A stretch of 64,000 nucleotides of DNA from Blasia pusilla (Eukaryota), in contig CM114271.1 in assembly GCA_050084515.1 (NCBI GenBank), positions 28,272,001 through 28,336,000 of the forward strand, given 5' to 3'. This document shows, piece by piece, positions 5,324 to 56,085 of this stretch (position 1 is the stretch's first letter; every line of letters starts with the position of its first letter). The notes under the pieces were generated by a model that worked only from the letters and a program-made list of their open reading frames with translations, ran no database searches and had not been told where the DNA came from. The translations under genes and the position numbers were made by a program.

Positions 5324-7822
5324 TCGTTTCTCCCATCGCCCTCAGTGCCTGCACACCAACAACATCACCAACTCTCCAGGTTCTTTGATAAAGACCCATC
5401 GATGGGGTCCTCATCGCTTCGGACAACGTGAAAGACTGAGGAAGCCTAGTTTGTTTCCTGGCTTCCCCTCGCGGTGGATCCAACTCTGCGGCTACTCCAT
5501 GCGTCACAACTGCAGCGGCGTCCATCAGGGCAACCCCGTACATCCAACCAGGATCCTCCATATCTCTAGCTGCTCCATATGATGTTGATGCCACGGATCC
5601 GGCATCAGGTAACCTCAATACCATAGCGGCAATCCACTCGTGTAGCTGTTGTATCTTAACAGCCATCCTAGCCTCACGTCTGACGTCTCCCTCGGCACGT
5701 CTAGGTGGTGGTACTCTACCTCCTCCACGGGCAGCTCCACCACCCTTTCGGGAAACTCCAACTCCTCGTCCCCCAACAGAACCACTTGGTGCACGATCTT
5801 TAGCCCGCCCAGACCGGCTACTCGCTCTGGTGCCCTCTATGGCCCTCGATCCGGACATAACTCTGGATGTAAACTGAAACACGTGGCGCGTGTATGACCA
5901 TACCTCTGACAATAGTCATACTGATAACCACCTGATGTAGCACCATCTCCTCCCCATGGTGAGGCACACGTCCATGACCCTTACGAGTGCAATCGCACTG
6001 ATGATGGGCTCCACCACATGATCAACAAGTAATAGTAGGTGGTTTTTGTTGAGCCGCAGGTCTCTATGGCACAGCCTCCTGGTATCCTCCCTGAGCTCGT
6101 GGTGGCACATTCGACCTATCCTGGAGTCCACGTTGTTGCACTGGTGGTGCAGCCAATCTTGATTGCTCTCGCCTAGAACCCATGGTGGCTACGCTCTCCT
6201 CCGCCATATTGCGCTCAATGTTCTCGGCGGTCCTAAGAACATCTCTCAATATAGGGGAGGTGTTCATAAGAAGCACCCCCTCCCGCACCCGTGTCCGTAG
6301 GGTCCGTTCCAGCATCGCGTACCATGACTAGATAGCTTGAGCCTCTATCATCCCCTGAGTGATGTTGATCAACCGGTGCAAGCGAGAGTAAGCCTCACAC
6401 AAACTCTCACCCGGGCGCCTCTAGAAGTCGTGGATGCTCTGTAACTTCTCTGTCCGTACCCCCTGGTAGCTTGCCCTCAACTTAGCAAAGAACTCAACCA
6501 TAGGGTTGAACCTGGGACAAACCTAGACAGTGCAACTGCTCCCGTACGAGTGACCCCTCCTAAAACGTCACAAGAGGAAGATGAAGTAGCCTCTCATGAC
6601 TCCTCCTCCTCATTTGGGAATGACTCCGTCCATGACACATAATGTGGGTCATAGTAGAGCCTCCACGCCTCGATTTGACGTGCGTATCTTTAAGAGAACT
6701 CATGGTAATCGTCCATGGGCGCCCCCTCTAAATGCTTGAACATACCGCTCCATGCTATAAACGGGCTAAACTCTCTAGAGTTCCTGGCCTGCTGGGAGTT
6801 GCACCAACTCCTAGACTCTGCTATGAAATCGTGCAACTCAATCGTACCTACTACACCTGAAAACCCACGCGGTCCTCTACGTCATAGCTTTTCAAGATGG
6901 ACGCCGTGATGACCCTCGTGCCCCTCTCACCCGATCACTCTCGCCTCACAAGTAATCCCTCAATCACTCATCCCAAACATGCGCACTCGATGTACACTCT
7001 CCCTCCCCGAGACGTGTAACGTGCGGCGACAAGCGGCGTGGTGCGGAAAATCGACCAGGTTATCATCTCATCGACAACCTACCCTCAACTCCGAACATCC
7101 CACACATGTCTATGTCCCCTAAACCATATACATAAATTATACTCTCAACATCCACACACCCAATATCCCCAAATAAACTACCCAAATCCCAGAATCCCTC
7201 ACGTGCAGGGTAAATGACCAGAATAAATAACATGAACACATGTCGATGTCACTCCTCACCAATTGCAAATCTTGACCCCAACTCGGTCGTGGAGACAACT
7301 CCTCCAATCAACAAGTCATACTCATCCCGTATTGACGTTGCTCAAAACTCCTCGATAGACAGTGCGGTTCCAGCGGAACGGTGCGGCGTTGTAGGCGGCA
7401 CGGAATGGCTATGAACGGCATGGCTCTCGATGGTGGGATGGGGCACTCGACGGCATATCCTCCTCAATCAACAATAAACCCACACACTGCTCCACGATGA
7501 GGGTGCGGCCACGAGCGGTAGGGCGCGGTAATCGGCGGCGCGCTGCGGCTACGAGCGTCACGGCACGGTACTCGATCGTCGTCGAGTGGCTACCAATCAC
7601 AACAAAGCAGCATGAAATCAAAACTTAAACACCATAACCAGAGGTCATCTGCCATCACTGGTTGATGACGAAACTCCAATGACAGTGGTGGCCAAAACAA
7701 AGTACGTGGTGGCGATGCAAGTCAGAGAATCAAAAAATGTCGTGGAAGACCCTCCACTCCGTAACGACGACAATGGCAACCAAAGGATGGACAACGAACA
7801 GTCGACCGTTGACGGTGACAAT

Positions 7823-8346
7823 TGTCACGACTGTTAGGATAGATCGGTGGGATCTAGAAGAGCGTCTTCAGGAGTAGTGGAGGACAGGCCCATGAGGTCG
7901 AGAATGACCTGTTGAGGCCCCGGGAAACTTGAGAGAGCAGGTTTCCCCTTTGTTACGGCTCATTACCATTCGTTACGGAGCCATATAGAGAAACTTACTA
8001 TTTCAGGTAAGTTTCCATATTGAGGATAGTTGATTTTCTATTTTTGGTAAGTGGCCCTTGACCTCCTACATCAGATCAAGAGCCAAGGAGGTGACTTGGG
8101 AGCATAGGTTACCATGGAGAGAGCTTGGGAGAGGGGAGGGATATACCTCAAGGAGAGAGAGCTTGAGAGCTTATTCTCTCTTTGTTGAACCTCTTGGCAT
8201 GAGGCGGCGGAGCTATGGTCCCTTGCCTTGTGAGTGTAACCCAAGCCTCTCATTAGGAGAGTGGGTTTGGTTTGACATGAGAGAGAGTGCACACCTTTGA
8301 GAGCTATGGTGTGGGATGGTGTAGAGAGAGATTGGATCTTACTTTA
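7823..8346 (+). repeat. A1 terminal repeat of E1
   Basis: Direct repeat of 17352-17864; identity ends at GGATCTTACTTTA. Confidence 0.9.
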
Positions 8347-9880
8347 CAAAGAGAGAATGAGAGAGTGAGAGCGCTACAATGTCGGGAGCTTGCTGGATTT
8401 TTGCTGTGTGTGCAGGTTAGGGACCATGTTCCCTACTTCATGACTCATGAGAGTGCTCACAGGAGCAAGAGTCATTCAATTTGCTATTTTCCTTTACCGT
8501 TTTTTCGTACAAAAGAGTGGCGCGCGGAAGCGCTGCCCAAATGTTGGTAGAATTTGAGTGTGTGGGCGGATTACCCACGCCAGTGCTCTCGGGAGCACTG
8601 TGTAGCTTTCTGATTTGTCTTTTCACAGGTTTTACATTTTCGTTGGGAGAAATCAGCGCGGAAGCGCTTCCGAATTTTGGGGAGAAGAAAGAGACGTTGG
8701 GGTTTACGACAGTCCCCATCAGTTCTTATAGGATTTTTTGATTCAAAATATGTTTTTACTCCATTGTAGATCTTGAAGCTGCGCACGTTGTGCAATAGAT
8801 GGTGCGCGATTTGGAGCTGCGAGCATAAAGTTATGGCTAATTTTGTAAACTGCCAATTTTAGGGTAAAAATCGAAACTCTAAAGCCGCAGTCGCCGTTGG
8901 CGGCGCCGTCACCGTCGACCACCGTCACCGTCAACATGGACCACCGTCGCCATCACCGTTGACCACCGTTGTAGTCGCCGTCGCCATCGGACAAGATGTC
9001 AACCCGTCGCCTGGCCGTCAACCCGTCGCCAGGACGTCAACCCTTCATCAGGCCGTCAACCCTTTGCCATGCCCTTTGACCCGTCAGCTAGCCCGTTACC
9101 CGTCAAGCTGTCGTCGACCGACTGGAGTACTATTCTGGATGACGTGTGACCCAATGATTTATGGGGTCCAAGTTTTCTAGCCGCGTTACTATGTTTTGAG
9201 TTGGAAGCCGCTCCATGAAGATTGAGGACTGTGACGTGTCGCCCGTAGCCGCAACGCGCCGCCGATTTCCGCGCCGTGCCGCTCGTGGCCGCACCGCACT
9301 GTCTCGATCGCGGAGCCGCACCGTCATTGTAGAGTAGATTGTGTTTTGCAGGTTTGAGGAGTTTGGCTTCACAACCGAGTTGGGGTCAAGATTTACAGTT
9401 GCTAAGGAGCGACATTGACATGTGTTCACGTTACCCATTCTGGTCCTTTACCTAGCACGTGTTAGGGATTTTGGGATTTGGGTAGTTTATATGGGGATCT
9501 TGGGTGTGTGGATGTTGAGAGCATCAGTTATGTATGTGGTTTAGGGGACATAGACCTGTGTGGGATGTCCAAAGTTGAGGGTAGGTTGTCGATGAGATGA
9601 TAGTTTGGTCGATATGTCGCACCACGCCGCCTGTTGCCGCATGTTACATCTCTCGGGGAGGGAGAGTGTAGATCGAGTGACGCATGTTTGGGATGAGTGA
9701 TTGAGGGATTACTCACGAGCTTCAGAGTGATTGGGTGAGAGGGGCACGAGGGTCATCACGGAGTCCGTTCGGGACTTTGAGAGGCCAGGTGGTGAACCCG
9801 AGAGTAGTTCTAGAGGTTTTACGCAGAGTGGCGCGAGGTTCCGAGGGTCTCCACGTGAGGGACCACCTTGACCTCCTTCT

Positions 9881-11396: not shown

Positions 11397-11914
11397 GGGA
11401 AGCCAGAAAACAGACTAGGCTTCCTCAGTCTTTCACGTTGTCCGAACCGCTGAGGACCCCATTGATGGGTCCTCATCAAAGTTCCTTGAGAGTTGGTGAT
11501 GTTGTTGGTGTGTAGGCATGGAGGGCGATGGGAGAAGCGAGTTTGAGGACTCTTATTGTTGATGCTCAGGAGGGGCATGTGTCGAGCACGTTGTTGGGGG
11601 CGGCCATCATTGTGTGCCGCACTCCTTTATTTTCTGCTTCCGATGTTATGACGTTGGGGGGTACGCCCGCCAAGGCTTTTCGGCTGGCCGCTTCACTATG
11701 TGAGCGCGGAGTTGGAGTTCTTGCATCACGTTCAGAGGTGATTGCAGAGGAGGTGATGGACCTGCCCTTGGAGCGGATGCTCGGGCGGTCCACGTCAGAT
11801 TCATGGCAGGCTGCGGTTGCTAGGATGGCGGAGATGCGCGCTAGACCGGCGATAGAGCATGCCATGGCTTCTCTTGGTGTTGTGTTCCTAGATAACTGAG
11901 GAGAGGTCTTCCAC

Positions 11915-12514
11915 TTGGTGAGTCCTGGAGGTAGAGCTTTTAGTCCGCAGCGTGTCTTGTTGGATTCAAGAGCGCAACCCCTGATGTTGGGGAAAGCGTC
12001 ATTCAGAGGATTGGGCTTGACGAGAGCCGATGTGGAGCATTGTCCATTCTGGATACTGACATCCTTGGGTGGCGCGAGTACCACACAGTATATCACCCGA
12101 CAGGAGGTTGTGGTGAGGATTCGCCCGGGACATCCTACTGATGAGTCTCTGATGCGCGCCAGGGCAATAGTGACAGATGCAGAGTCCTACGACGTCTTGG
12201 TTGGTAGAGCAGTGTTATACCCGATGGGGTTTTCTATGGATTACTGGGAGGAGTCAGCGTCCTACAGACCAAGATGGCAGTCATGTGATGGGCGCCTTAG
12301 CTCATTACCCGTTCAATTCACATGTGCAGTGATCAAGCGACGGCCAGGAGAGATGGCGACCTTAGCAGCATTTAGCAGTGCCATCACTTGGCCTAGTGAT
12401 TTGATTGAGGGACATGTCCATGCAGAGGATACTCCCGTTCCTGACATTTGTATGGAGAGGAGTGTTATGGTAGGTGCATCATTCCATGGAGGAGAGGTGC
12501 CTCTCCTCCACTGA
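11915..12514 (+). pseudogene. Aspartic protease (E1)
   Basis: RVLLDSRAQPLMLG ... YDVLVGRAVL. Confidence 0.75.
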
Positions 12515-12684
12515 GGAGCACCTCTCCTCCAGAACTTCGACGATTGGCAGATGAGCACGTGCAGACCGTGTGGAGCGAGGCATTTGCACCGGAGCGTGAC
12601 GGGTCTGAGGTACCCGAGGTAGCAGGGAGTGCTACGATGACACCCTTGGATACCACACCCATTGTGTGGTGTACCCCGGAGGAG

Positions 12685-13630
12685 GGTATTCGAGTGTTAG
12701 ATCTCTTTGGAGGGATAAGCACCGGGTTAGCTACTGTTTTGCAGGGAGGAGTGCGAGTACAGCAGTATCTGTATGTGGAGAGTGATGATGTTGCGAGGCG
12801 CGTCTCACTACGACATGTGGCGCAATTACGCCTATGTTTTCTCGACTTATTGTCTATGTCCGCAGTACAGAGGTATCAGAGTTCCCTATTGAGGGATATT
12901 TCGTTTTTGGGGGCGCAGGACTTAGAGCGGGTAGGGACCATTGATTTGGTTATTGCCGGTTGGCCATGTCAAGGCCAATTGAGTGCTGGACGAGGCAGCG
13001 AGTTGGTTGACACTCGGTCCATGTTGTTTTGGGAGATGTTGAGGGTCTTACGGAAGTTGCAGGAGCACCTGTCTCGTTCTCCAGCCTACATTCTGGAGAA
13101 TGTGCCGATCTTAGGAGACTCCAAGTCACGGGTGGTGACAAGTGCTCATCAAGTGCGTGCCTGGTTCGGCCCAGCAGTGTTCTTGGATACGGCGAGTGTA
13201 GGTTCTAGAGCCCATCGCCCGCGTCTATGGTGGACCAACTTGGTGCCCCATGCGATGTTATGGAGGGCGTATGCGAGAGTGGAGCGCCCCCATTTGTTAG
13301 TGGATTCCATTCTGGATCCAGGTCGTCGATCAGAGGCAGTGAGGCACGATGATTGACCACCGTTGACTGTGGTCAAGAGGGTGGGCAGGCCGCGGGCAGC
13401 CTTGCCCACGTTTGTGAGTTTTCCCGCTTCCTATGCATACAAAAAGGCCGTTCCTGGCTTGGTTTGGGATGACCAGGTTCAGCGGTTGGTGGAGCCCGAC
13501 GCCGACGAGAGAGAGCGAGAGATGGGATTTCCCACAAGAGTGACGGCAGTACCGTCAATGTTAGAGGCATCACGACGCCATGTCTTGGGTCAGGCGATGG
13601 ACCTGAACTGCTTGACATGGATCCTCAGCT
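12685..13630 (+). pseudogene. C5 cytosine DNA methyltransferase domain, DNMT3/DRM-like (E1; one internal stop)
   Basis: Motif I VLDLFGGISTG, II YVESD, IV DLVIAGWPCQG, VI YILENV, VIII RAHRPRLWWTN, IX EREREMGFP, X RRHVLGQAMD, in canonical order. Confidence 0.92.
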
Positions 13631-14039
13631 TGGGAGTGGCTGAGCAGCATCGTATGAGATCGCGACAGATCACAGGGGTTGCGTTGGTGAGCCCCATGCC
13701 TACCGAGATGGTGGAGGTAGTGGCAGGGGGCGAGACCCGAGGAGATCTACGCACCAGGGGAGATTGGGAGAGACACCCTTGGACTTCTCGGGATGTTTTG
13801 CAGGTACGCCAGGAGATGATAGCCATAGCATCGAGCGTGGTTTTGGGCACTGCACGTGGAGGAGATCAGAGTTTGCAGTTGGCTGCAGGAGAGCGGCCGA
13901 GTGTTGTTGTTCGAGACGAGGTTGCACCATAGCAACCACCGATACCTACGCCGGAGAGTCCTACCGTAGTCACGATGGAGACTTGGGAACCAGATATGGG
14001 CCCTAAGTTGACAGGAGGAGAGCGGCGCCGAATACATCA

Positions 14040-15470
14040 GTTCCTCAGGAGTTATAGGAGTTTCTTTGCATTTAGCATGGAGGATTTGGGTACGCGGAAG
14101 GGACCGAGGATCCGCATTGAGTTGTCGAGTGATACGCCAATCTTCCAATGATCCTACAGGTACAGTGATATGGAGAGGGCTCTGATTCAGAGTAGGAGCC
14201 AGGACTTGGTCGGAGCAGGACTAGTGGAGATGTCGCATGGGGAGTATTGCATCTGCCATTGTCATGCCCGCCAAGAAGGATGTGCATGGCAACTGGATGG
14301 ATAGGCAGATGTGTGGCGATTACCGACCTATCAATCGGCATACGAAGTCCGATAGGTATGCCATGCCCACCCCTGAGGAGATCTTTGATACGATTGGTCA
14401 CGCAAAGGTCTTCAGTTCATTGGATTTGCGAGCCGGATACCATCAACTGCCTATCACATTGGAGGACATGCAGAAGATGGCATTTTGGGGCATCGATCCT
14501 CACGGGAAGGATTGTTTGTACCAGTGGCGGTTCTTACCATTTGGGTTAAAGAATGCTCCGGCTGAGTTTCAGAGGGTCATGGATAGGATCTTGGCTGGTC
14601 TGGATTTTTCTAGGTGTTATATTGATGACATCGTGGTCTTAAGCGCCACGGTTGAGAGCATGAGCGGCATCTAGAGGAGGTGTTTCGACGATTGCAATTA
14701 CATGGGCTGAAGCTACATCCAGGAAAGTGCAAGTTCTTCTACGACCAGATTGAGTACTAGGGTCATACGATATACTCATGGGGCCTTGGTGTTCAGTTGA
14801 CGAAGGTAGAGGCATTCCACGCATTCCACGCCCTACAGATGTGAGCCGTGTTCATGCATTTGTGGGATTGGCGAACTTCTATCGGCGATACGTCAAGGGA
14901 TTGAGTTCGATTGCGAAGCCGCTGACCTTGCTGACCAAGGTGGATCAAGAGTGGCACTGGGGAGATGAGCAAGAGCGAGCATTTTAGTTGCTCAAGGACA
15001 GGTTGATGTCTACGCCGATCTTGAGGAGACCGATCAGGGGGCGTCCTTTCCAGTTGCACACAGATTGGAGCATGTTGGGGCTTGGAGCGGTGCTCACCCA
15101 GCATGATGATGAGGGTAGAGAGTTTGTGGTGGCTTATGCTAGCCGCTCAAACAATGCAGAAGAGGCGAAGTACAGCTCGTATGAGGGTGAGTGCTTGGCT
15201 GCGGTGTGGGCTGTCGCGCATTTCAGGTGTTACTTATTCGGCAACCCCTTTACCATCATCACTGATCATCAACCACTGAAGGGGTTGATGGAGTCAGACA
15301 AGCTTACAGGGAAGCTTGCGAGATGGGCTCTGTTGTTCCACGAGTATGATTTTCAGGTGGTACATAGACCTAGGACGCTCAACCAGGATGCAGATGGGTT
15401 GAGTCGTAACCCATGCCTGAGTCAACAAGATGCGATTGGAGCTCGATGGCATGGAGAGAGTGATCAGGAG
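14040..15470 (+). pseudogene. Reverse transcriptase and RNase H (E1, disrupted)
   Basis: MCGDYRPIN, LDLRAGYHQ, LPFGLKNAPAEFQR, CYIDDIVV; RNase H LHTDWS, EGECLAAVWAV, TDHQPL, DADGLSR. Confidence 0.92.
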
Positions 15471-15699
15471 TAGGTGCCAGGATGGCACCCGTCAGCCTAT
15501 TTAGGCATGTTGGCTATGGAGAGCCAGAGTGTGGAGACTTCGATGGTGAGGTCTAGTGGAGAGTCCTTGGATCCCGAGGCCAGTGAGGAGACGGCAAGTG
15601 GCAGAGATATTCATGATGATGGAGTAGTCTTGGAGTACCTTCGTATTGGCAGCGTTGCGAGCACCGTGGATGCTAGAGAGCGGGATCGGATCCTACAAC

Positions 15700-16860
15700 G
15701 GGCCAGACGGTTCCGTTGGGAGGGGACACACGTTTTGAGGGTTTGGGAGGATGGCAGAGTACGCGTAGTGCCGCATCCTTCGCATAGAGCACGACTAGTG
15801 CAGCATGCCCACGAGGAGTTGGGTCACTTTGGGGTGAAGCGGACGTACAGCTTGCTCCAGATTCAGTATTGGTGGCGAGGCATGCAGACTGACGTTCAGC
15901 AGTTTGTTGCCAAGAGCATGGTGTGTGATCGGGTCCGAGCATCGTTCAATGCTCTAAATCCACAGTTGCATCCATTACCGATCACGGGCTTAGGGTATAG
16001 ATGGAGTTTGGATTTTGCAGGACCTTTGCCTTTGACGGAGCGTCATACTCGTTATGTGTTGGTGATGGTCGAGCACTTCTCGAAGTGGATCGAGTTGGTT
16101 GCATTGCTTGACAAAGCGAGTGAGGGAGTAGCTTATGCCTTCCTTGACAGAGTGCTGAGTCATTATGGCGCACCGGCTGAGATGTTGACAGACCAGGGTA
16201 CCGAGTTTTGCGGTGAGTTCCAGGCCTTGTGTGATCAGGCGCTGATCGACCACCGCACGACTTCGCGAGATCATCCCGAGGCGGATGGATTAGCGGAGAG
16301 AGTTGTGCAGATTGTGAAGAGGGGTTTATGCAAGTATGGCTTGCAGAGAGGGCACCTAGGAGGTTGGGATCTCTAGTTGCCATGGTTGGCGATGGGATTC
16401 AGATTCAACATGCAAGCATCCTTAGCGTCGTTTTCACCATACTTGCTACTTTATGGCCGAGAGCCAGATTTACCTGCGGCCATTTGTCGAGATGTTGGTG
16501 AGGTGCTAGACCTTGATGACCCAGATATATGGGTGTGAGCATATTCTCAGAGGTTTGAGTTGTTTCGGAAAGTGATGCCCATGGCGTTCGAGAACTTGGC
16601 GATTGCGCAGCATCGAGATACGTTGAGGTATGCGACTATTCGGGGTGGTGGTTATCGACCAACTATGCGGAGGTTTCATCAGGGAGATTATGTCTACTTG
16701 CAGCAAACGGCACCGACGACGTTGGATGTGATTGAGGGCGCAATATCCTGAGAGTGCGTGACGTTTTGCCATCCGGTGTTCTCTTGCTGGAGGGACGCGA
16801 TGGTATGGTATGGAAGAACCATGTGTGTAATTGTGCGCCATGTCACCTTCCTAACATTGA
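15700..16860 (+). pseudogene. DDE integrase (E1)
   Basis: HAHEELGHFG zinc-binding region; WSLDFAGPLP, VEHFSKW, LTDQGTEF, HPEADGLAERVVQ. Confidence 0.92.
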
Positions 16861-16899
16861 TGGTCAAGTAGATCCGAGCTTAGCAATAGTTCCTGCAGG

Positions 16900-17046
16900 C
16901 TTGCGTTGTATGTTGTGTAGTTATGCCCGTGGTGCGGCCACGATGCTAGTCTGTGATGGATGCTCGAGAGGTTGGCATATGGCATATCTGACGCCACCTC
17001 TCACTAGGGTTCCTCGGGGATGATGGATATATCCCAGATGTACATA
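16900..17046 (+). pseudogene. C-terminal PHD finger (E1)
   Basis: CMLC...MLVCDGCSRGWHM...LTPPLTRVP.G.W..P.C; complete C4HC3 in the E4 copy. Confidence 0.85.
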
Positions 17047-17224
17047 GAGGAGATACTAGGTAGGTTTCGATTCCAACTTTTTCTGTGATAGGGATGACAG
17101 GAAGGCGACTAACGATGGGGCCACATGAGCACCCGGCCTTTCTGCTCTTAGAGTCCTAGAGATATATGTCGTGGTAGGTAGGGATAGATGGCTATCTGGA
17201 GTTAGAGGGACCTAACCACCAGCT

Positions 17225-17234
17225 AGGGGGGCGA
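17225..17234 (+). other. Polypurine-tract-like motif immediately 5' of B1
   Basis: AGGGGGGCGA; near-identical at the same position in E3 (25031) and E4 (49024-49033, minus). Confidence 0.55.
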
Positions 17235-17974
17235 TTGGAGATATTTTGGTACTTCTCGCCTCTATGTATGGATGCCATGAGTTAGCATGGGATCGTGTGT
17301 GTTTGATGACAACGATGTATGTTGTGTAGCGATATGTATGCGCACGACAGTTGTCATGACTATTAGGATAGATCGGTGGGATCTAGTAGAGCGTCTTCAC
17401 AAGTAGTAGAGGACAGGCCCATGAGGTCGAGAATGACTTGCTGAGGCCCCGGGAAACCTGAGAGAGCAGGTTTCCCCTTCGTTTCGGCTCATTTGAAGCC
17501 ATATAGAGAAACTTACTATTTCGGATAAGTTTCCATGTTGGGGATAGTTGGATTTCTATTTTTGGTAAGTGGCCCTTGACCTCTTACGTCAGGTCAAGAG
17601 CCAAAGAGGTGACTTGGGAGCATATGTTACCATGGAGAGAGCTTGGGAGAGGGGAGGGGTATATCCCAAGGAGAGAGAGCTTGAGAGCTCATTCTCTCTT
17701 TGTTGAACCTCTTGGCATGAGGTGGCGGAGCTATGGTCCCTTGCCTTGTGAGTGTAACCCAAGCCTCTCATTAGGAGAGTGGGTTTGGTTTGACATGAGA
17801 GAGAGTGCACACCTTTGAGAACTATGGTATGAGATGGTGTAGAGAGAGATTGGATCTTACTTTATTGGAGATATTTTGGTACTTCTCGCCTCTCTGTATG
17901 GATGCCATGAGTTAGCATGGGATCGTGTGTGTTTGTGTGTGTGTTCGATGACAGCGATGTGTATGCGCATGACA
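17235..17974 (+). repeat. B1-A2-B2 3' terminus of E1
   Basis: B1 17235-17349, 2-nt spacer GT, A2 17352-17864, B2 17865-17974. Confidence 0.9.
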
Positions 17975-18634
17975 CAGTTGACCGTTGATGGTGACGGTGA
18001 CGATTGACCATCTATGGTGATGGTTGACCGTCGCTGGCGGACCATTGACGGTGACTATGATGGCGACGGTCGTCGCCGGCGTGGCGGCTGGTTTAGGGTT
18101 TGAACAATTTAACCCTAAAAAATACCTAGCAATGGCAGTTTTGCAAGATTGACCATAACTTTTTGCTTGCAACTCCACATTGCGCACAACGTACACAGCT
18201 TCACAATCTACAACAATGTCAACAAATATTTAGAATCAGAAATTCCAGTAAAAACTGACGCGGACTGTCGTAAAGCCCAATGTCTCTTTCTCCTACATAA
18301 AATTGAGCAGCGCTTCCGCGCTGATTTCTCCCAACAAAAATGTAAAACCTATAAAAATACAAATCAGCAAGCTATATGGTGCTCCCCAGAGCACTGACAT
18401 GGGGCAACTTGCCCCCATAATCAATCTCTATCAGAAATTGGGCAGCGCTTCCGCGCGCCACTCTTCCACACGAAAAATTGGCAAATACAAAGAACAATCA
18501 AAGCAGCCCTTGCTCCGGTGAGCACTCCCGTGAGCAGCTGAATGGGGAACACGGTCCCTAATGTGCAAAACAACAAGTGACCAGCGAGCTCCCCCATGAA
18601 GATCTCTCTCTCTCATTCTCTCATTCTCTCTTTG

Positions 18635-24278: not shown

Positions 24279-25849
24279 TTTACCAACGGCCATTCGTCGA
24301 GATGTTGGTGAGATGTTGAATCTTGATGATCCTGATGTATGGATGCGAGCATATTCTCAGAGGGCTGAGTTATTTCGGAGAGTGATGCCCATGGCGTTTG
24401 AGAACTTGGCGATTGCGCAACACCGGGATACGTTGAGGTATGCGACTATTCGGGGAGGTAGTTATCTACCTACTATCGGGAGGTTTCATTAGGGAGACTA
24501 TGTCTACTTGCAGCAGACGGCACCCACAACGTTGGATGTGACTGCATGGGGCACCATCTTGAGAGTGCGTGAGGTTTTGCCATGTGGTGTTCTCTTATTG
24601 GAGGGACGCGATGGTATGGTTTGGAAGGATCATGTGCGTAACTGTGTGCCATGTCATCTTCTGAACACTGACGGTATAGTTGATCCGAGCTTAGCAATAG
24701 TTTTTGCAAGCTTGCGATGTATGTTGTGTGGTTCCGCGCGTGGTGCAGCCACTATGCTAGTCTATGATGCGTGTTCAAGAGAATGGCATATGGCATGTTT
24801 GACGCCACCTCTCCCTATGGTTTTTCAAGGACGATGGATGTGTCCTAGATGTACATAGAGTAAGTAGTTCTACATTCTGACTTATGTTTGTAACATGGAT
24901 GATAAGAAGGCGACTAACAACGGGGCCACATGAGCACCCGACCTTCTTGCTCTTACCGTCCGAGAGATGTATGTCATGGTAGGTAGGGATAGATGACTAT
25001 TTGGAGTTAGAGGGACCTAACCACCAGCTTAGGGGGCGATTGGAGATATTTTGGTACTTCTTGTCTCGTTGTTTGGATGCCATGAGTTACCATGGGATTA
25101 TGTGTGTTCGATGATAACGATGTATGTTGCGTAGCAATATGTATACGCACGAAAATTTTCACGTCTTTTAGGATAGATCGGTAAGATCTAGTAGAACGCC
25201 TTTGTGAGTAGTGGAGGACAGGCTCTGTAAGTCGAGGATGACCTGTTGAGGCCCTGTGAAACCTGAGAGAGCAGGTTTTCCCTTCGTTTTGGCTCATTCA
25301 GAGCCATATTGAGGAACTTACTATTTTAGGTAAGTATCATCTGAGTATATTATCAACTTTATATTTTTGTTAAATGGTCCTTGACCTCCTACATCAGGTC
25401 AATAGCCAAGGAGGTGACTTGGGAGCATAGGTTACGATGGAGAGAGCTTGGGAGAGAGGAGGGATATACCTCAAGGAAAGAGAGCTTGAGAGCGCATTCT
25501 CTCTTTGTTGAACCTCTTGGCATGAGGCGGCGGAACTATGGTCTTGCTTGCCTTGTGTGTGTAACCCAAGCCTCTCATTAGGAGAGTGGGTTTGGTTTGA
25601 CATTGAGAGAGACATATGAGACTACGCACATGTGAGAACTATGATGTTGTGAGAGAGATTGGATCTTATTTTATTGGAGATATTTTGGTACTTCTAGTTT
25701 CGTTGTTTGAATGCCATAAGTTAGCATGAGATCGTGCGTGTTTGTGTGTGTGTTCGGTGACAGCGATGTATGTTGTGTAGCAATGTGTATGCGCACAAAA
25801 AATACAAAAGTAGTTGAAGTTATTGATACCCATTCAAACATGGAGAGGA

Positions 25850-30726: not shown

Positions 30727-33700
30727 GGCAGATGAATCAGATCCTCACTTTGATGTAGCACTAGAAAGATCAGACCCCGAAGAGTCTGAATCTACCTGGC
30801 CCACAAAAATGAGGTCTCCTCATTACAAGAGCAAACGACCAAATCAGTTAGATATATTTATGACACAATCTATTGATTCAGTTGGGAGTGCTTCTTGTTT
30901 GTAAGTAATTAGATTTGAAGACCGTGTGTAACATAGTGAAGTTTACGATGTGAATAGGGTGTGAACCCAAAAGACAAGAATTCTAGGTTGCAAAAGGGTC
31001 CATATACAGGCCCACAATGGCCTATGCAAGGGTATAGTTATCCAATGCAACAATGGCCAACAACAATGGCAGGTATGGTTGTTCAGTCATTCTCGAAATG
31101 AATTACGAATGTAGTTGTTTCTAATGGAAAATATTTTGAATGATAGTAATTTCCATACCTCATGTGACCATTTTGGATGTTACAAGGTCCATTCCAATAG
31201 GTTGGGGCCCCTACTCTACAATTGGTACTTTCTATCCACCCCCACCTCAACCTTCCATGGTTGAGTGGCCCATTGGAGCCCAAAAACCTCTTAGTAAGTA
31301 ATTAAAACATTAATTTAACTACCCATTCTTCAAAGTAATGCTATAATGCATAGCATCTGATCCTACATTGAAATTGCATGGACTTGATATTTTTCTCCAT
31401 AAGGTATTTATTGTGATGATGATAATTATCTTCTTATATAGACTCTTCCATTGCTCGAATGAGGAGAAAAGAGGAGTATGAGACATGGAAAGCTACATGC
31501 AAAGTTCGAGAGCGTCTGGGTTTGTTGCCTATTGTGGAAGTAACCTCCAATGGTGAGACAGTTTATTGTTGCAAAGGTAAGGCAGTGTGGTATGATGATG
31601 TAAAAGCTTATGTTCATCGCCACCTTGATCTAAACATTTTTTATGTTAGTAAACAATGTGATCATGATCTCAAGACTATTCGTTGGGAGTAAGACTCACG
31701 CTATGAATAAAAGGCGGTGAGGTCACTGAAAATTTTTGGTAAGTTGTCTACAAGATATTCTCAAGAGAGAAAGGGCTAGGTTGAAAAAAAGTATGGAAAG
31801 AACAAGGGGCTGTGTAGGAGATTCCCCCACCCCTAGATGTGAATCCTAGGACATAGCAAAATTTGAAAGCGTATTGGATAGTCGCCTAAGGGTGAGTCCA
31901 GATCTCAAAGAATGAAGGCAAATAGAAAAAAGGTGAAGGAAAATAGAGCAAAGGTGGAGCATATGAATCCAAATGGTCCAAGAGGATACGATGGGCAGAG
32001 GAATTACATGGTAAGTCAAATGTTACTATTTCCATAAAATGTTGGTGGTATTTTTTGTAATGGTGCCAGGGTAAAATGGTTGTATTTACATTGTTTGTGT
32101 ATTTGATTGTGTAGAGAAAAGAGCGTGGTGCTCGTCCCTCATTACAAGACTTGGAGGAGTCTTTGGGTGTGGCTCAAAAAATAGAAAAAGTCACCAATCA
32201 GTGAGCACTAAGGCATGTAAAATTGTACATTTGAAAATAGAGCATTGCACATATCTATCTAGAAGGATTACTATAGAAAATTCCTTTCGTGCGTGCACTT
32301 ATTTTAGCTTCATAGGTAGTAGTGTATATGATCTTCTAATATTATAATGTGTTGACTTATTCATACACATTTTTATGACTAAATGTGAACTTATATGTAC
32401 TTGTGTGGCTTTGGGTAGAGTGAGGTGACATCCTTAACCAATAGAATGGAGAGGTTTGAGAAACAATGTGAGACTATCCAAACCGAGGTAGTCACTATGA
32501 AAGAATCTCTTACCCACATGATGGATATGCTTCAGCATTTGACTAAAGTGGTTTCAACCACGAGTAGTCATGGAGATGATGGAGGAGATCCTCATGTTCC
32601 ATGTGTTCATGATCCTCCTATTGCTGCTAAAACTCTCCATGCTCAATCTCTTTCTTGAAGTCTTCCTACTCCCAAGATATAGCCTCCTTCTTTGCAGTCT
32701 TTTCTTCCCCATCCTACCTTGCCAAACATGGCTTCTAGTGCTTCCACCAAGAGTCCTTGGAAACCATTGGTATCTAAATCTGCAATTTCTAGGGTTGTCG
32801 ATTCCACCTATGAATGTATCGATCCTTCCCTCCCTATCGAAGATCAGCACGCTGAAGTAGACGCAAGTATTGATCCACTTGACACTCTTGAATCACAAGA
32901 GGTGAAAGAAAATGTTGATATTCATCAAGCAATGAAGGAGAAGGAGCAGCCCAGAAAGGAGCAACTTGCAAAGCTGAAATCAAAACAAAAGGTTTTAACG
33001 ATGCAAGATAGGAAAGAAAAGCATCAAGTAAGTTTCATGCCTTAAGCATTTTTATTTGATATGATGATACTTTGAATCATTTGATGGAATCCTTGTTGCT
33101 TACATGAGATTCATATATCTGTACAAAAATTGATGATATGTTGATTTCTTTTGTAGAATTGCATGCCATTGGATGGTGTCGTGCGCATACACATCGCTAC
33201 ACAACATACATCCTTGTCATCGAACACACACACAAACACGCATGATCCCATGCTAACTCATGGCATCCAAACAACGAGACAAGAAGTACCAAAATATCTC
33301 CAATTAAAGTAAGATCCAATCTCTCTCTCCACCATCTCACACCATAGCTCTCAAAGGTGTGCACTCTCTCTCATGTAAAACCAAACCCACTCTCCTAATG
33401 AGAGGCTTGGGTTACACTCACAAGGCAAGGTACCATAGCTCCGCCGCCTCATGCCAAGAGGTTCAACAAAGAGAGAATGAGCTCTCAAGCTCTCTCTCCT
33501 TGAGGTATACCCCTCCTCTCTCCCAAGCTCTCTCCATGGTAACCTATTATCCCAAGTCACCTCCTTGGCTCTTGACCTAATGTAGGAGGTCAAGGGCCAC
33601 GTACCAAAAATAGTAAGTTGATCATATACTCAAAATGGTACTTACCTAAAATAGTAAGTTTCTCAATATGGCTCCAAATGAGCCGAAACGAAGGGGAAAC

Positions 33701-34246
33701 CTGCTATCTCAGGTTTCCAAGGGCCTCAGCAGGTCACCCTCGACCTACTGGGCGTGTCCTCCACTACTCATGAAGGCGCTCTATTAGATCTCACCGATCT
33801 ATCTTAAAAGACGTGACAATGATCTTGGAGTCTTGGCATTCTCTTCTAAACTTCCAAAACATGGTTGGAGTCTTAAAAAGGTAAGTAGTGGGATTTCAAT
33901 ATGGTCATCTAGATAGATTATTTGGAAAACATCAACTTTATCTCCTTTAAGCATTGTTCTTTTGCAGTTAACAATAGGAGATCAGGTATATTTGTCAAAA
34001 AGCCGCAAGGGATGGGAGCATGTTGGAGTTGGAAGAGTATCAGGCATCGTTGGTTGAAAAAAGTGCCATGGTAAATTTATCCCACTTGGTGTCATTAAGG
34101 TGGAAGTGATTGAGATAAATGATCCTGATGCAAAGTTGCCCTATCCAAATTTAGATGATATGCCGCCACAAACACACTTGAAGCATGCAACGGGGACTTC
34201 TGTTTTGTGGCCTCAGCAATCAGTCAAAAAAATCATTCCTCCATAA
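30727..34246 (+). pseudogene. Putative CACTA TnpA-like multi-exon gene remnant
   Basis: Short exon-like ORFs bounded by AG/GT sites downstream of the transposase; last segment contains DPDAKLPYP-like sequence; product assigned by position only. Confidence 0.4.
33177..33818 (-). repeat. Solo A-B unit of the methyltransferase-Gypsy family
   Basis: A 33818-33304 followed by B 33303-33177; TG...CA ends; flanks ATGG/ATGA. Confidence 0.9.
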
Positions 34247-48917: not shown

Positions 48918-49196
48918 TGTCGTGCGAATCCACATCGTCATACAATATACATCGCTGACATACCATACTCACATACATACATAACATAGACGAGAGCATC
49001 CAAAAACACAAGTGTACCACAACTCGCCCCCCTAACTGGCGGTTAGGTCCCTCTAACTCCCAGGTAGCCCTATACATCTACTACATGCTATACACCTTCT
49101 TGGATGCCCGAATCAGAAGGTCGGGTGCTAGGTTGCCCCATCGTTAGTCGCACATCTGTAATCCATATCATGCAAAGATCAAGTCATCTACCTCTC

Positions 49197-49345
49197 CTAA
49201 GTACATCGAGGACAAACCCACCTTCCAGTAAGAACAACATCCATACGTGGAGTCAAACACATCATGTGCCAACCCCTAGAACACCGATCACACACAAACA
49301 TACGGGCTGCGTTACCAGCAGACCCACACAACATGCACCTCAAGC
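49197..49345 (-). pseudogene. PHD finger (E4)
   Basis: CMLCGSAGNAARMFVCDRCSRGWHMMCLTPRMDVVLTGRWVCPRC, a complete C4HC3 pattern. Confidence 0.9.
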
Positions 49346-52043
49346 TAGCACGGATCATGGCTAAGCTTGGGTCAACAATACCATCCACATTTGGAAGATG
49401 ACATGGCGCACAATTACGCATATGGTCCTTCCAAACAACTCCATCACGACCCTCCAACATGAGAACTCCAGAAGCTAACACCTCGCGCACTCGTAAAATA
49501 GTGCGGCTTGCCGTCACATCCAACGTTGTCGGTGCAATCTGCTGCAAATAGACATAGTCCCCCAAATGGAACCTACGAATCAATGGTCGATAAGCTCCAC
49601 CCCGAATGGTTGCATACCGCAACGTATCCCTGTGTTGAGCAATGGCAAGATTCTCAAAGGTCGTTGGCATAACTCAAAGAAAGAGCCGCTAAGAACACAC
49701 TCTCATCCACATCTCTCGGCTCATCAAGGTTCACCACCTCACTAGACTCGAAAAATTTCTTTGGCAAGTCCGGATCTCGTCAGTATAATGTAAAATAAGG
49801 TGAGAAGGAAGCCAAGGATGCTTGGCGACTAAACCTATACCCCATGGCTAACCATGGCAATCGAATATCCAGTCTCCAAGATGCCCTTCAGAGGCCATAC
49901 TTGCGCAATGCCCTCTTTCTTTTGCCCGAACCACACTCTCAGCCAAACCATCCGCCTTTGGATGATCTCGAGACGTGGTCCGATGATCAATCAACGCCTT
50001 GTCATACAAGACGTGAAACTCACCTTGAAACTCTGTACCCTGGTCGGTCAGCACTTCATCTCGTGCACCAAAATGACTAAGCACTCTATCAAGAAACGCA
50101 TACGCCGTTCCCTCACTTGCCTTGTCCGGTAATGCCACCAACTCAATCCACTTGGAGAAGTGCTCCACCATCACCAACACATATCGATGATGTCGTACAG
50201 TCAACGGTAACGGTCCCGCAAAGTCCACACTCCAACGGTAACCCAACCCCATAATAGGCAAGGGGTGTAATTGTGGTGTAGGGGCATTGAATGATGCCCT
50301 CACCCGGTCACAAACCATACAACGTGACACCAACTGGTGCACCTGAGTATGCATGCCACGCCACCAATATTGGCCAAGGAGTAAGCTATACGTACGCTTT
50401 ATCCCAAAATTTCCTAACTCCTCATAGGCATGTCGCACAATACGCTCTCTCTAAGCCAAATGTGGCACTACTCGTACTCTACCATCCTCCCACACGCGGA
50501 GAATATGTGTTCCCTCCAATCGATACCTCTTAGCACGTTGAAGAACACGGTCTCGCTCCATGGGTACATAGAACATGGGTTCCTACTCAACCCATCAGCA
50601 TCAAGGTTGGCAACTCCAGGTCTATGTACCACCTGGAAGTCATACTCCTGTAAGATAAGAGCCCACCGTGCAAGCTTCCCTGTAAGCTTGTCAGACTCCA
50701 TCAACCACTTGAGCGGCCGGTGATCAGAACAAGGGTAAATCGTGGTGCCAAACAAGTAACATCTAAAGTGTCCCCTGGCCCACACTTTGCTAAGCACTCT
50801 CCCTCATATGAACTATAGCGCGACTCCGCTGCATTATTCGAACGACTTGCATAGGCCACCACAAACTCCATGTGCTCATCATCATGTTGTGTCAACACCG
50901 CTCCAAGTCCTAACCTACTCCAATCAGTGTGTAACTGAAATGGGCGCCCTCTGATAGGTCTCCTCAAGATAGGCACCGCCACCAACTGGGCCTTAAGCTC
51001 CACAAAAGCTCTCTCCTGATCATCTCCCCAATGCCACTCTTGATCTGATTTCAGGAGTTGGTTCAAAGGCTTTGCCATAGCACTAAATCCCTTCACATAC
51101 CTCCGATAGTTGTTTGCCAATCCCATGAATGCTCGAACTCTACTCACATCTACAAGACGCGGAATAAGTGCAATAGCCTCCACCTTTGCTTGCTGAACTC
51201 CTAAACCACCTGGATAGATCACATGACCCAAGTACTTAACATCCTCATGGAAGAACTTACACTTTCCTGGATGCAAACGTAATCCATGAGCTTTCAATCG
51301 CTCAAACACCATCTGCAAATATATCTGATGCTCCTCCACCGTGTTACTGAACACCAAGATATCAATGTAACACCGAACAAAATCCAACCCTGCTAGGATC
51401 CTGTCCATCACTCTCAGAAACTCGACAGGTGCATTCTTCAACCAAAGGGTAAGAATTTCCACTGGTACAAACAATCCTTGCCATGAGAGTTGACACCCCA
51501 AAATGCTGTCTTGGCCTCGTCACTCTCCCAAATCGGCAATTGATGGTATCCTGCCCGAAGATCCAAAGTACTGAAAATCTTTGCCTGTCCCACCACATCA
51601 AAGATCTCCTCAAGTGTAGGCATGGCATACCTATCGTCCTTGGTTTGCCGATTGATAAGACGGTAATCTCCACACATACGCCTATCCGTGTAGTTGCCAT
51701 GCATATCCTTTTTAGCAGGCATGACAGTGGCTGATGCATACTCTCCATGCGACAACTCCACTAATCCAGCCTCCAAAAGGTCCAACGTCCTACTCTGAAT
51801 CAGGTCCCTCTCCATATCACTATATCAGTAGGGACGACGGAAGATTGGCGTATCACTAGCCAAATCAATCCGTATACCGGGTCCAACCAGAGAACCCAAC
51901 TCCTTCATGCTAAAGGCAAAACAACTCCTATAAGCACGTAGGAACTCTGTCAAGCGTCGTTTCTCACCTTCCGTAAGCTTGGGCCCAAGTAATGGCTCCC
52001 AAGTCTCCTCCACTGGCACACTAGCGGGAGAGGACGATGCCAT
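49346..52043 (-). pseudogene. RT, RNase H and integrase (E4, disrupted)
   Basis: RMCGDYR, LDLRAGYHQ, LHTDWS, WSVDFAGPLP, LTDQGTEF, DGLAES. Confidence 0.9.
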
Positions 52044-52312
52044 TGGCTGCTATGCAACCCCCTCACAAGATGGTACACCCTTAGCTACACCATCATCTGA
52101 GCAAATAACTCCTCCACGAGCATGAGCAACCAACTCCACATGCCCAGCCATTACATCCCATTTACTCCAAGGATGCAAAATACTACTCTCCTCGCCCCCA
52201 GCCGATGCCTCTACCGTCCCGGTAACCATCGAGCTCATTACAAGGGGTGGAAGACCCACAGACATAGTCCGAAGTCGACGCTGCTCGGCCATACCAAGAC
52301 TCAAAATCCAAG

Positions 52313-53250
52313 TCAAAAATTCAGGTCCATGGCCTGACCCAACACATGACGTCGTGAAGCCTCGTAAATAGAAGCAACTTTGTCACACCAAAGAGCAAAT
52401 CCCATCGCACGCTCTCTCTCATCAGCGTTAGGCTCCACCAAGTGTCGCACATGAGAATCCCATACAAGCCCCAGACCACCTTCTCTGTAAGCATGTGACG
52501 AGGGAAAACTCACAAATGTGGGTAGTGCCATCCTAGGCTGGCCCACACAGTTCACCACTGCCATGGGTGACCGATCAATAACCCTCACCACCTGAGAAAG
52601 TCGCCCAATATCCAAGATACTATCCACGGTAGGGCAAGGATCCCGCTGCACTGCATCATATGCTCGACGTAGAGCCTCCCTGGGCAACAAGTTTGTCCAC
52701 CACAAGCATGGAAGATGTGCACGCGAGCCAACTCGCGCTGCATCCAACAACACCGTTGGTCCAATCCAAGACCGCACCTCATGAACACTCGCCATCATCC
52801 GGGTCCGAGTGTCATCCAACAATGGAACATTCTCCAGAATGTAAGCTAGAGCACGTGCCTGATGAACCTGAAGATGTCGTAACACCCGTAACATCTCCCA
52901 AAACAATCGAGACCTAGGGTCATGTAATCCCTCATCACGACCAGCACGTGTATGACCCTGACATGGCCATCCAGCAATCACCAAATCCACAGGACCAACC
53001 CTCTCAAGATCCTGCGCCCCCAACAATGCAATGTGTGATGGTAAAGCACGCTGGTATCCACGAATAGCTGATGGCGGCAACAACTCAAGATATCTCTGCA
53101 TCAATTGACCAATATGTTGGGATGAGACTCTCTGGGCCGTCTCATCTCGCTCCACATACACGTATCTCCTTGCAGACAGAATACCGGCCGCAACATGCTG
53201 CTAGCCTAAACCAGTGCTAATCCCACTAAAGAGATCTAACACACAAATGC
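52313..53250 (-). pseudogene. C5 cytosine DNA methyltransferase domain (E4)
   Basis: VLDLFSGISTG, YVERD, DLVIAGWPCQG, YILENVP, RAHLPCLWWTN, ERERAMGF, RRHVLGQAMD. Confidence 0.9.
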
Positions 53251-54708
53251 CCTCCGCGGATATGCCATACAATGGGTGTAGTATCCAAAGGGATAACCTA
53301 ATCTGGACTGAAGTAGGAGTCCGCCGTGGGGCCTCCTCTTCCTCGTGAGGTATAACAACCTCACACCAAGCCTCTGCACTAGGCGTCGCCTCGCCGTAGT
53401 GCACCGCTGAACTCCAAAGTGGCACATCCAACGATGATGATGCCACTTCTGCAAGAATAGGGACCTCCTCTACCTCCTCATGCCCAGGAGAATCCATAGC
53501 AGAAACATTACCCTCCAAAAAGTCTCCTGGCCAAGTGACTACTCCACTAAAACCAGCCACAGATGCTAACACTTTGTTGGGGAAGACCCTCTGGTCGAGC
53601 CCCGAGGAAATAAATCTCATAGGAACTTGGCTCATACGTCCATCCCGGACTACCAACCAGGTCTATAAGACGCTATCTCGACCCAAGTAATCCATTGAAA
53701 ACCCATCGGGTACAATCGCTCCTCCAACTAGTACATCATACGACTCGGCTTATGTGACTACAGAGATACTCCTAATCGGGAGCTATCGTCGCATGATCTG
53801 GTGTCAATCATCACAGAAAACTTCTCCTGTGTCATGAATTGAGATCTATCATTGGCTCCTCCAAGTGATGTTTGAATCAGGAATGGGCAAGGCTCAAGCT
53901 CTGACCTCCGAATACCCAAACCAATACATGCCGCCTTTCCCAACATCAAGGTTGGGCACCGAGTCTAACAAGACTCTATCGGTCTATACACTGTCTGTAG
54001 GACTCACCAATCGGAATATCCCACTCCGGTTGTCCAACATACATACACCAGGTGTAAGTCTCTCACGATCAATGGTGGCCGGGCCGGTAATGCATCCATC
54101 TTCGCCGCCGCTCGCTAAGTAGCATGGTAGTCAATGCTACACCTGACATAGAGGGTCGCTCCACTGCAACACCCTCATCCACCTCAACACGTGTAGCAAT
54201 AACACCCCCACGTTCATACAACGTGGCTGCAAGGTGAAATACAGGAGCTAAGTCAACTCCTAAAGCCATCAGCTCCGTGGCGAAAACAATGGGGATCCTA
54301 ACACTTTGAAGTTGCCATCCGCACATCTTGATCGATGTTGCATCCGTATGCGCTACACGCGATGTAGATGCCTCAGTCTCCACTGTCGGCTCAATAGGCT
54401 GTGTAGGACCCATGGATGGAGTCCTAAGCATCTCAGACAACAAGAATGACTGGGGAAGCCTAGCCTGCCTCCCAGCCTCACCCCTCTGTGGGTCTAACTC
54501 CACAGTAGCACCACGTGGCTCGACGCTCGAGTGGATCCTCTCAGAATCGCGGTGATGCCTCAACCTGTGTTGCACTCGCCATATAAGAGAGATCATCCCC
54601 TCCATAAGAGGTGGAAGCCCCTGCTCCCGAACCTAATCTATGCTAGATACCACCATAGTAGCCAACTGCTCCAATCTGCTCAATCTCGGCGACCATAGTC
54701 GCCCTCTG

Positions 54709-56085
54709 TCAGAGTGGTAGGGGTAGCCACCGTAGGCTCTCCAACCACTCGGGTCCACCTCTACCACCTCTATCACCTCGGCCTCTCGGAGCTACTCCAC
54801 CACGGCCGCGGCCTGATCTCAACTTTGGATGAAGATCAAAGCAATGCTCTCGAGGATGACCTGGTCTCCCGCAAAGATCACACTGAGTTGGGACCGACTG
54901 AGGCCCATCCTCCAAAGTCCGTCTCCCATCCTTTTGGGGATAAAACTTCCTAACATGATCACCTCCACATATCGAACATGATTGTCCTTGCTGCGGGGCA
55001 GCAAATGAAGGCAATGGTCTCTACGCAAATGTCCCTCTAGGACCTGACTGAGGTCGTGTGTACTCCCCACGACTCCCACTACTACTACCACCACCACTAC
55101 TATAAGACCGTGAGGTGGATTGCTGAACACGAGAGGTAGTAGTTGTATCCCTACTGAATGCGGATGTCACCACTCTCTCCTTCACCATGTTAAGCTCAAT
55201 CTTCTCAGATAGAGCAAACACATGGGTCAATGTGGGTGAATCACCACTCATAAGAGTAGCATCACGTACCCTACGGCGTAAATCGTTGTCCAAGATCCCA
55301 TACCAAAACTGGACTGCCTGATCCTCAATCACACCCTGGGTAACTGAAATCATGCGTCGCATACGAATGTATGCCTCACGAAAACTCTCACCAGTCTTTC
55401 GCTCAAATTCTTGAAGATTCTTCAACTTCTCCGTCTTCACTCCGTGATAATTCTTCTTCAACCTCTTGAAGAACTCTGCAACCGGGCTGAACGATGGTGG
55501 GGCACTAGTACCTCCACTAGTACCCCCACTAGTACCCCCACTCCGGCTCGTACTCGTACCACTCAACGTCGGGCTGGCTGGCATAGTAGGAGCACTACTA
55601 CCAATACCACCATGGGTAATAGACACATAGCCTGAAGACCAATATTGTCTCCATGCCTCAATCTCAACAACATGGTCCTTCCTAAACTCATGGTAATCAT
55701 CCATGGGTGGTCCTTCCAAGTGCTCAAACAACCCCTTCCAAGCCAAGAAGGGTGTAAACAACGTGGCGTTCCGCAACACCTGCATATCACACCACGTATC
55801 AAACTCCTGCATGAAGTCCTCCAACTCAATGGTGCCCACTGCACCCGAGTATCGTCGTGGGCCCTTCATGGCCCCATATCCACTGTCCATGTCCCAAATC
55901 AATGGAGCTGCAACACTCGATAACAACGTAGAAGACTCGGTGTTTGGAACACCCTCGTCCTCCTCTTCATCAACCGTCGGAAGTGGAAAAGGTAGCCGAC
56001 ACCTAAATCCACTCCGTGTGAAATCACCACTGTCCGCACCACGGTCCCCAACTAGACCACCCGACAGCTCCGTGATGACCAACAC
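54709..56085 (-). pseudogene. Gag with zinc knuckles (E4)
   Basis: PRRYSGAVGTIELEDF, FERKTGESFREAY, CDLCGRPGHPREHC. Confidence 0.8.

Follow-up and report, generated by a model that had tools for sequence, protein, structure and literature searches.

The 64,000-nucleotide stretch of Blasia pusilla DNA analyzed here (the window) contains a retrotransposon, E2, which is a Ty3/gypsy element by its proteins, priming sites and target duplications and does not belong to the DIRS order. Its family has the layout A1-coding-B1-nn-A2-B2. It is highly probable that the element carries a circularly permuted LTR, which is cut internally, and that A and B are newly joined to each other. Our best explanation is that the ends of the permuted-LTR cDNA are joined first, as a two-LTR circle, and that integrase then cuts the internal site; we assign this sequence of events a probability of roughly 0.55. 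The internal CA-nn-TG junction itself is real, conserved and mechanistically unusual.

E2 spans positions 7823 to 17974 of the window and sits inverted within the leader of a sister copy. Its features are as follows.

7819..7822, forward strand: left copy of the target duplication, CAAT, with one difference from the right copy
7823..8346, forward strand: A1, the left terminal repeat, which begins TG and has no B ahead of it
8173..8184, forward strand: predicted self-primer in A1, complementary to bases just past A1
8347..8361, forward strand: primer-binding site (PBS) of the self-priming type, directly past A1; its first bases recur as inserts at A2/B2 joints
12445..13356, forward strand: C5 cytosine methyltransferase domain in a decayed frame (Pfam DNA_methylase, E 6.7e-09)
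14988..15473, forward strand: RNase H of the RT region in a decayed frame (Pfam RT_RNaseH, E 3.7e-35)
15474..16376, forward strand: DDE integrase, zinc-binding and core domains (Pfam Integrase_H2C2 and rve)
17225..17234, forward strand: polypurine tract (PPT) AGGGGGGCGA, directly ahead of B1; 485 PPT-B-nn-TG matches genome-wide
17235..17349, forward strand: B1
17342..17359, forward strand: att-like site (B1 end, spacer, A2 start), from pattern matches; the same core occurs in family 2 and in metagenome relatives
17352..17864, forward strand: A2, with a TATA-like box at 17660 and a self-primer copy at 17688-17702; putative promoter
17860..17870, forward strand: A2/B2 joint, flush in E2 (17864/17865); putative end-to-end join of cDNA ends
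17865..17974, forward strand: B2, the right terminal repeat, which ends CA
17975..17978, forward strand: right copy of the target duplication, CAGT

The left end of the element consists of A only. Among 30 A1 loci, 27 have no same-strand B match, one has a B ahead of A and one has a B beyond the leader. Inserted copies do not carry two full identical terminal LTRs. The repeats pair within elements, as LTR pairs do: A1 matches its own A2 best in 8 of 10 copies, and the B subfamily motif is the same in B1 and B2 of 28 of 30 elements, including near the B start (one element is discordant and one mixed). Private variants common to B1 and B2 of one element are seen in L084 and L085. A few copies are rearranged. 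L046 and L104/L080 are short, internally deleted copies that keep the A start and the B end, the former with a GATC duplication, and L059 has PPT-B-nn-A followed by leader.

The integrase alignment has invariant D180 and D240 and a nearly invariant E275. Pfam also finds RT and PHD domains in the family-2 copy E6, and a relative with open frames encodes protease-like (below the Pfam cut-off), methyltransferase, RT, RNase H, integrase and PHD domains. The protease-RT-RNase H-DDE integrase order, the TG...CA ends with a 4-bp duplication, and the presence of both PBS and PPT are those of Ty3/gypsy elements; the nearest solved RT-RH to the homolog P0008 is that of Ty3 (E 4e-97). The A1-B1-A2-B2 split direct repeats are those of PAT/Ngaro, but tyrosine recombinase has no Pfam match in 20 window frames or in 11 frames of the relatives L194 and L245, where an rve integrase is found instead. 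The frames of relatives likewise give no chromodomain match, and a PHD finger is present. The stop at 13354-13356 was considered as a programmed stop and ruled out, as most copies have CGA there. In L194 (5083-5091) and L195 (4661-4669), an in-frame TAG lies in the same place, between the gag-protease-methyltransferase and RT-RH-IN-PHD frames. It is followed by CAG TTA / CAA TCA, which resembles the leaky-stop motif CARYYA.

At the internal junction of E2, B1 terminates in ...CGCACGACA at 17349 (CA at 17348-17349), the spacer GT occupies 17350-17351, and TGTCATGAC opens A2 at 17352 (TG at 17352-17353). The surrounding core is palindromic, GACA-RY-TGTC. An initial annotation of this DNA had read the junction as a B1 end, two spacer bases and an A2 start, and had reported the same spacing in E3 and E5. 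The coordinates agree on all three: the spacer is AT at 25155-25156 in E3, where the dinucleotides beside it have decayed to AA and TT, and AC at 60055-60056 on the minus strand in E5. The other copies in the window are these.

25040..25800, forward strand: E3, a B1-AT-A2-B2 block
59411..60183, reverse strand: E5, a B1-AC-A2-B2 block, with an approximate B1 start
33177..33818, reverse strand: solo A-B unit, its joint with one extra A, flanked by TCAT/CCAT
48918..57961, reverse strand: E6, a family-2 copy of the form A-coding-B only, with its own A' and B', the same att core and a perfect duplication (AGGA/AGGA)

Genome-wide searches covered the 390-Mb assembly of 26 contigs. The pattern GCACGACA N{0,8} TGTCACG has 747 exact matches there versus 3 for the reversed control. 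A 2-nt purine-pyrimidine (RY) spacer is present in 669 of the 747, and just 5 have a spacer of 3-8 nt. All of the first 100 matches listed have 2 nt (AC 34, GT 22, GC 19, AT 13, other 12). Spacer length thus does not vary freely when the junction is compared across copies, and the proposal that the right end of the element is joined to its left end through a fixed 2-nt spacer is borne out. The CA-nn-TG junction is a family-wide, conserved feature. The annotation further suggested that this junction could act in a circular intermediate. The part that assigns it to integrase holds up, in that CA-nn-TG is likely to be an integrase cut site within the LTR made by reverse transcription; its role as a DIRS/PAT-type template that restores the ends is not supported.

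Target duplications define the insertion unit as A1...B2. In family 1, 4-bp duplications bracket this unit in all 12 scorable copies, 11 perfectly and one with one mismatch (20 copies were fetched with their upstream 10 kb, and 12 had a scorable A1 start). In family 2, 7 of 7 scorable copies (13 fetched) have a perfect duplication, giving 18 perfect among the 19 scored in both families. Metagenome relatives are mixed, with two of four perfect, one with one mismatch and one with none. A different origin, which the initial annotation had raised in part, is that the junction is an artefact: an A-B LTR of the ordinary kind, or a solo LTR, would have landed beside a B remnant, and the spacer would form part of its target duplication. 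E2 viewed singly would fit, as CA plus spacer (CAGT) equals the right flank at 17975-17978, and CAGT on either side of A2B2 mimics a duplication around it. None of nine other full copies shows such a match, so the coincidence in E2 is due to chance. With duplications that bracket the whole element, RY spacers in the great majority of junctions (669/747), and a layout kept in a second family and in other hosts, an artefact of this kind is hardly credible.

The priming sites are offset from the integration ends. The PPT is ahead of B1 in 28 of 30 best-match loci and 28 of 30 position-ordered loci, and it is not found ahead of A2. The bases past A1 are complementary to a stretch of 12-15 nt within A, which follows a TATA-like box at a distance of about 28 nt, and a fold of the PBS/self-primer region pairs both stretches (z -3.85, 0/200 shuffles). 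Family 2, whose A is unalignable to that of family 1, has its own 12-nt PBS/self-primer pair, and metagenome relatives have pairs of 10-17 nt of other sequence. The pairs of family 1, family 2, L174 and L239, which are 12-17 nt long, differ from lineage to lineage, yet they remain complementary. In both families, the predicted transcript start has a hairpin, a near-copy of the PBS just ahead of the self-primer (17660-17702; 57730-57780). By standard LTR logic, the cDNA LTR extends from PPT to PBS. Because the PPT is ahead of B1 and the PBS is past A1, the cDNA LTR would be B-nn-A, with CA-nn-TG inside it. Ordinary LTR reverse transcription could then copy B-nn-A to both ends with no splint, which speaks against the proposed end-restoring template.

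RNA reads from three runs with the same species label are mostly 90-95% alike to the window copy and so report on the family and not on that copy. Sense coverage continues through B1-nn-A2 and drops on entering B2, from a depth of 65-89 to 10-18, a weak signal given that repeats are masked near there. A few reads span A/B. No discrete transcript start or end is seen in the reads of the three runs, with repeats masked near B2.

The joint between A2 and B2 is variable. Among the first 100 of 1128 A/B joints, 70 are flush, 22 have an extra A, 6 have inserts starting like the PBS (2-24 nt), and 2 have inserts ending like the PPT, one of which carries a 10-nt filler; the search pattern needs both ends intact and so misses joints with deletions, and the count includes solo units. 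This added A need not be a PPT base and may have arisen without a template. Its presence does not cluster on the A2 tree, where 13 rows need 13 changes against a shuffled mean of 11.1; a control label, the B subfamily, does cluster (2 changes, shuffled 12.7, 0/500). This argues that the A2/B2 joint is not inherited. This tree has 40 rows and is star-like, with 8 of 37 inner branches well supported. By these signs, the joint that looks newly made is A2/B2, not CA-nn-TG. Leftover primer-site and PPT bases are what is expected at joined cDNA ends, as at those of retroviral two-LTR circles. The ends of such circles are reported to be joined by end-joining (PMC5314604); a search of that review turned up no mention of leftovers of this kind. 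Fillers of 10 nt occur at two joints (L021 and L078). At L027 (G000:C7, about 29200400-29200700), an uncut B-nn-A-leader left end is linked through a 15-nt filler to 30 nt of the B end, copied in inverted orientation; the far end of this locus was not found on search, and another element interrupts it.

These joints bear directly on the DIRS-like reading of the initial annotation, in which the RNA would begin inside A1 and stop inside B2, with the internal B1-nn-A2 as the template that restores both ends of a circle. The layout does match the split direct repeats described for PAT/Ngaro (PMC4157794), the ICR of DIRS (a complementary region inside the element) is reported as required for transposition (PMC7192593), and the few RNA reads across A/B agree with such a transcript. 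The reading predicts, however, an inherited A2/B2 joint, whereas the joint is variable and unclustered, with primer-site and PPT remnants, so that it is A2/B2 and not the proposed template that varies like a fresh ligation. It also predicts separate B1 and B2 lineages, whereas the two agree within elements even near the B start. The positions of the PPT and PBS are left unexplained, the frames scanned lack a tyrosine recombinase, and the fall in sense RNA depth at B2, weak as it is, points the other way. We regard this reading as improbable.

From the layout, spacer, PPT, PBS pairing, duplication, variable A/B joint and one-sided cutting, all of which are read directly from the sequence, we infer a transcript start, the steps of reverse transcription, a cut geometry, circularity and joining ahead of cutting. 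RNA would start inside A, and its 5' end would pair with the PBS past A1 and self-prime. The plus strand would be primed at the PPT and begin at B. Reverse transcription would yield a linear [B-nn-A]-coding-[B-nn-A], the ends of which are not TG...CA. The two cDNA ends would be joined at A/B with occasional primer-site or PPT leftovers, most likely as a two-LTR circle. At the left, internal CA-nn-TG site, the DDE integrase would then cut the two strands in staggered fashion, each behind its CA. With the 2-bp spacer between the cuts, each end would have a 2-nt 5' overhang and a CA-3', resembling a processed retroviral end; this shape is described for the retroviral integration intermediate (PMC11054761). 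Insertion with a 4-bp duplication would give A1-coding-B1-nn-A2-B2. An A end joined to a B start, combined with a cut at the left CA-nn-TG, yields exactly this product. The junction in the window would be the second, uncut twin site, retained for the next cycle. Foamy virus integrase has been reported to cut palindromic LTR-LTR junctions (PMC1180852). For retroviruses, the circle-junction model was set aside in favor of linear DNA (PMC11054761).

One result counts against a simple circle. A covalent two-LTR circle that is symmetric offers two identical sites, and both possible products should then be about equally frequent. The other product, A-B-nn-A-coding-B, has two pattern matches genome-wide, both of them ordinary copies and neither followed by A, versus 485 for PPT-B-nn-TG. 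Judged from these copies, cutting is confined to one of the identical sites (485 versus 0), and a symmetry breaker must exist, be it nearness to the cDNA end, the timing of reverse transcription or methylation. Methylation could come from the methyltransferase that the element itself encodes, which may mark one of the sites or protect it; the GC-spacer palindrome is hypermutable. The absence of the second product keeps alive a rival with the same permuted LTR and internal cut and no free covalent circle, in which joining of the ends follows insertion or results from an RT jump. In the host-repair variant, integrase would cut whichever site lies closest to the linear cDNA's left end, both pieces would be inserted, and the A and B ends would be joined later; in the other, RT itself would jump from the right end over to the left one and so create the joint. 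Such routes account for the same joints and duplications, and end proximity could explain the one-sided cutting. B is shorter than A in each lineage measured (about 127 versus 513, 106 versus 367, and 178 versus 280), and the fillers of L021 and L078 and the uncut end of L027 show free B starts getting joined. Against them, every insertion would need a chromosome break, and flush joints make up 70 of the 100 scored, in a count blind to deletions. We hold this rival to be possible but distinctly less probable than joining ahead of cutting.

Spacer states also sit uneasily with the best explanation. GC is the most frequent spacer in family 2 (11 of 26) and the commonest in relatives, for which reason GACA-GC-TGTC is probably the ancestral state. 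Across 40 repeat pairs, the spacer changes at about 0.4-0.5 per site versus 0.18 at other CTG sites, and single spacer changes are in excess (p 0.013). Plain CHG decay, tried as the source of this variation, accounts for only part of it, given these rates. Spacer state is unclustered on the A2 tree (22 changes versus a shuffled mean of 19.7). This pattern would be unexpected under simple inheritance and counts against circle formation followed by internal cutting.

The system extends beyond family 1. The att core is retained in family 2, whose A and B are different; among 30 loci, 26 extend into A', in 25 cases past a 2-nt spacer, and 4 stop at B. The latter four (E6, L121, L123 and L135) are A-coding-B copies without A2-B2, which may be products of one-LTR circles or recombinants between B1 and B2. 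The idea that E6 represents a family lacking A2-B2 is ruled out by the 26 loci that run on into A'. Of 79 metagenome loci, 4 have A1, B1, A2 and B2 and 17 more have a B1/B2 repeat pair; most loci with repeats have a PPT together with the GACA-RY-TGTCA core, intact or decayed. Those discussed have 48-84% integrase identity. Many of the contigs are not long enough, and several were re-assembled from the same material and hence are not independent. Named integrase homologs come from Riccia, Calypogeia, Sphagnum, Klebsormidium, Closterium, Chlamydomonas eustigma and Tetrabaena.

The closest described element is KnitGypsy-Dnmt3 of Klebsormidium nitens, for which a figure legend notes DIRS-like repeats (A-coding-B-A-B) with Gypsy domains (de Mendoza et al. 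2018, PMC5890265). It shares with the Blasia element these repeats and a C5 methyltransferase within the Gypsy polyprotein (PMC5890265). The K. nitens DNMT-RT-RH-IN protein has 52% identity to the window integrase and 47% over 923 aa to the Pol of a relative; the kinship is one of pairwise RT-RH-IN similarity. In the text searched, PMC5890265 offers no mechanism, does not contain the word 'circular' and does not mention spacer, target duplication, PPT or PBS. A literature search for the element's name finds this paper only, and the literature searched, which includes few subscription journals, Repbase reports or theses, describes neither a permuted LTR nor an internal att site, though supplements and figures may bear on this.

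The A1-coding-B1-A2-B2 arrangement and an internal copy of the joined ends are shared with descriptions of PAT/Ngaro/VIPER and the DIRS-1 ICR (PMC4157794, PMC6681497, PMC7192593). Those elements use a tyrosine recombinase. The Blasia element instead combines a DDE integrase with TG...CA ends and 4-bp duplications, and it has both a PPT and a self-priming PBS. Tf1/Sushi and Tcn1 are described with the RT-RH-IN order and a PBS complementary to an LTR stretch instead of a tRNA, as here (PMC6317226, PMC4600332), but with two full TG...CA LTRs. The priming sites of the Blasia element are offset from its integration ends, and its family has a PHD finger and no chromodomain match in the frames of relatives. 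Cleavage of retroviral two-LTR circle junctions likewise involves integrase at an internal palindromic CA...TG and end-joined ends (PMC1180852, PMC11054761, PMC5314604). There the ligated joint is the cut site and circles are a side route, while in the Blasia element joint and cut site are separate places and the joint is in every copy. The arrangement has a further parallel in bacteria. In the circle-junction transposition of IS3/IS911 and IS30, a DDE enzyme acts on abutted ends with a short fixed spacer, as in the Blasia element; these elements are DNA-only, and their spacer is made anew from flanking DNA, while that of the Blasia element is RY-constrained.

The textbook view is that LTR elements and retroviruses integrate from the two free ends of linear cDNA, with two-LTR circles as a side product. 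That integration in a green-lineage Gypsy clade always starts at a site within the LTR of end-joined (circular) cDNA, as a natural case of circle-junction integration, is in our judgement an evenly balanced proposition. Thousands of genomic copies record an end-to-end joint per insertion and an internal cut, so the circle question can be tested on a natural element. The permuted LTR offers a mechanism for a layout that was recorded in 2018 and left unexplained. The same logic may explain the PAT/Ngaro split direct repeats without a splint. The element also points to a way in which paired LTRs and split direct repeats could be connected. The layout also explains why LTR-pair finders would mis-call or miss an abundant clade.

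Other repeats share the window. Another repeated element, beginning TGTCGTGCGA, adjoins E6 at 57962-58330 on the minus strand; it has 899 genome candidates, and its start is an inverted form of the B end. A fragment of a CACTA-type Transposase_21 (Pfam) lies at 26853-27533, and LINE-like endonuclease and RT frames lie at 46319-48584. Tandem repeats occupy 39850-40930 and 42174-42610, with periods of about 351 bp and about 150 bp.
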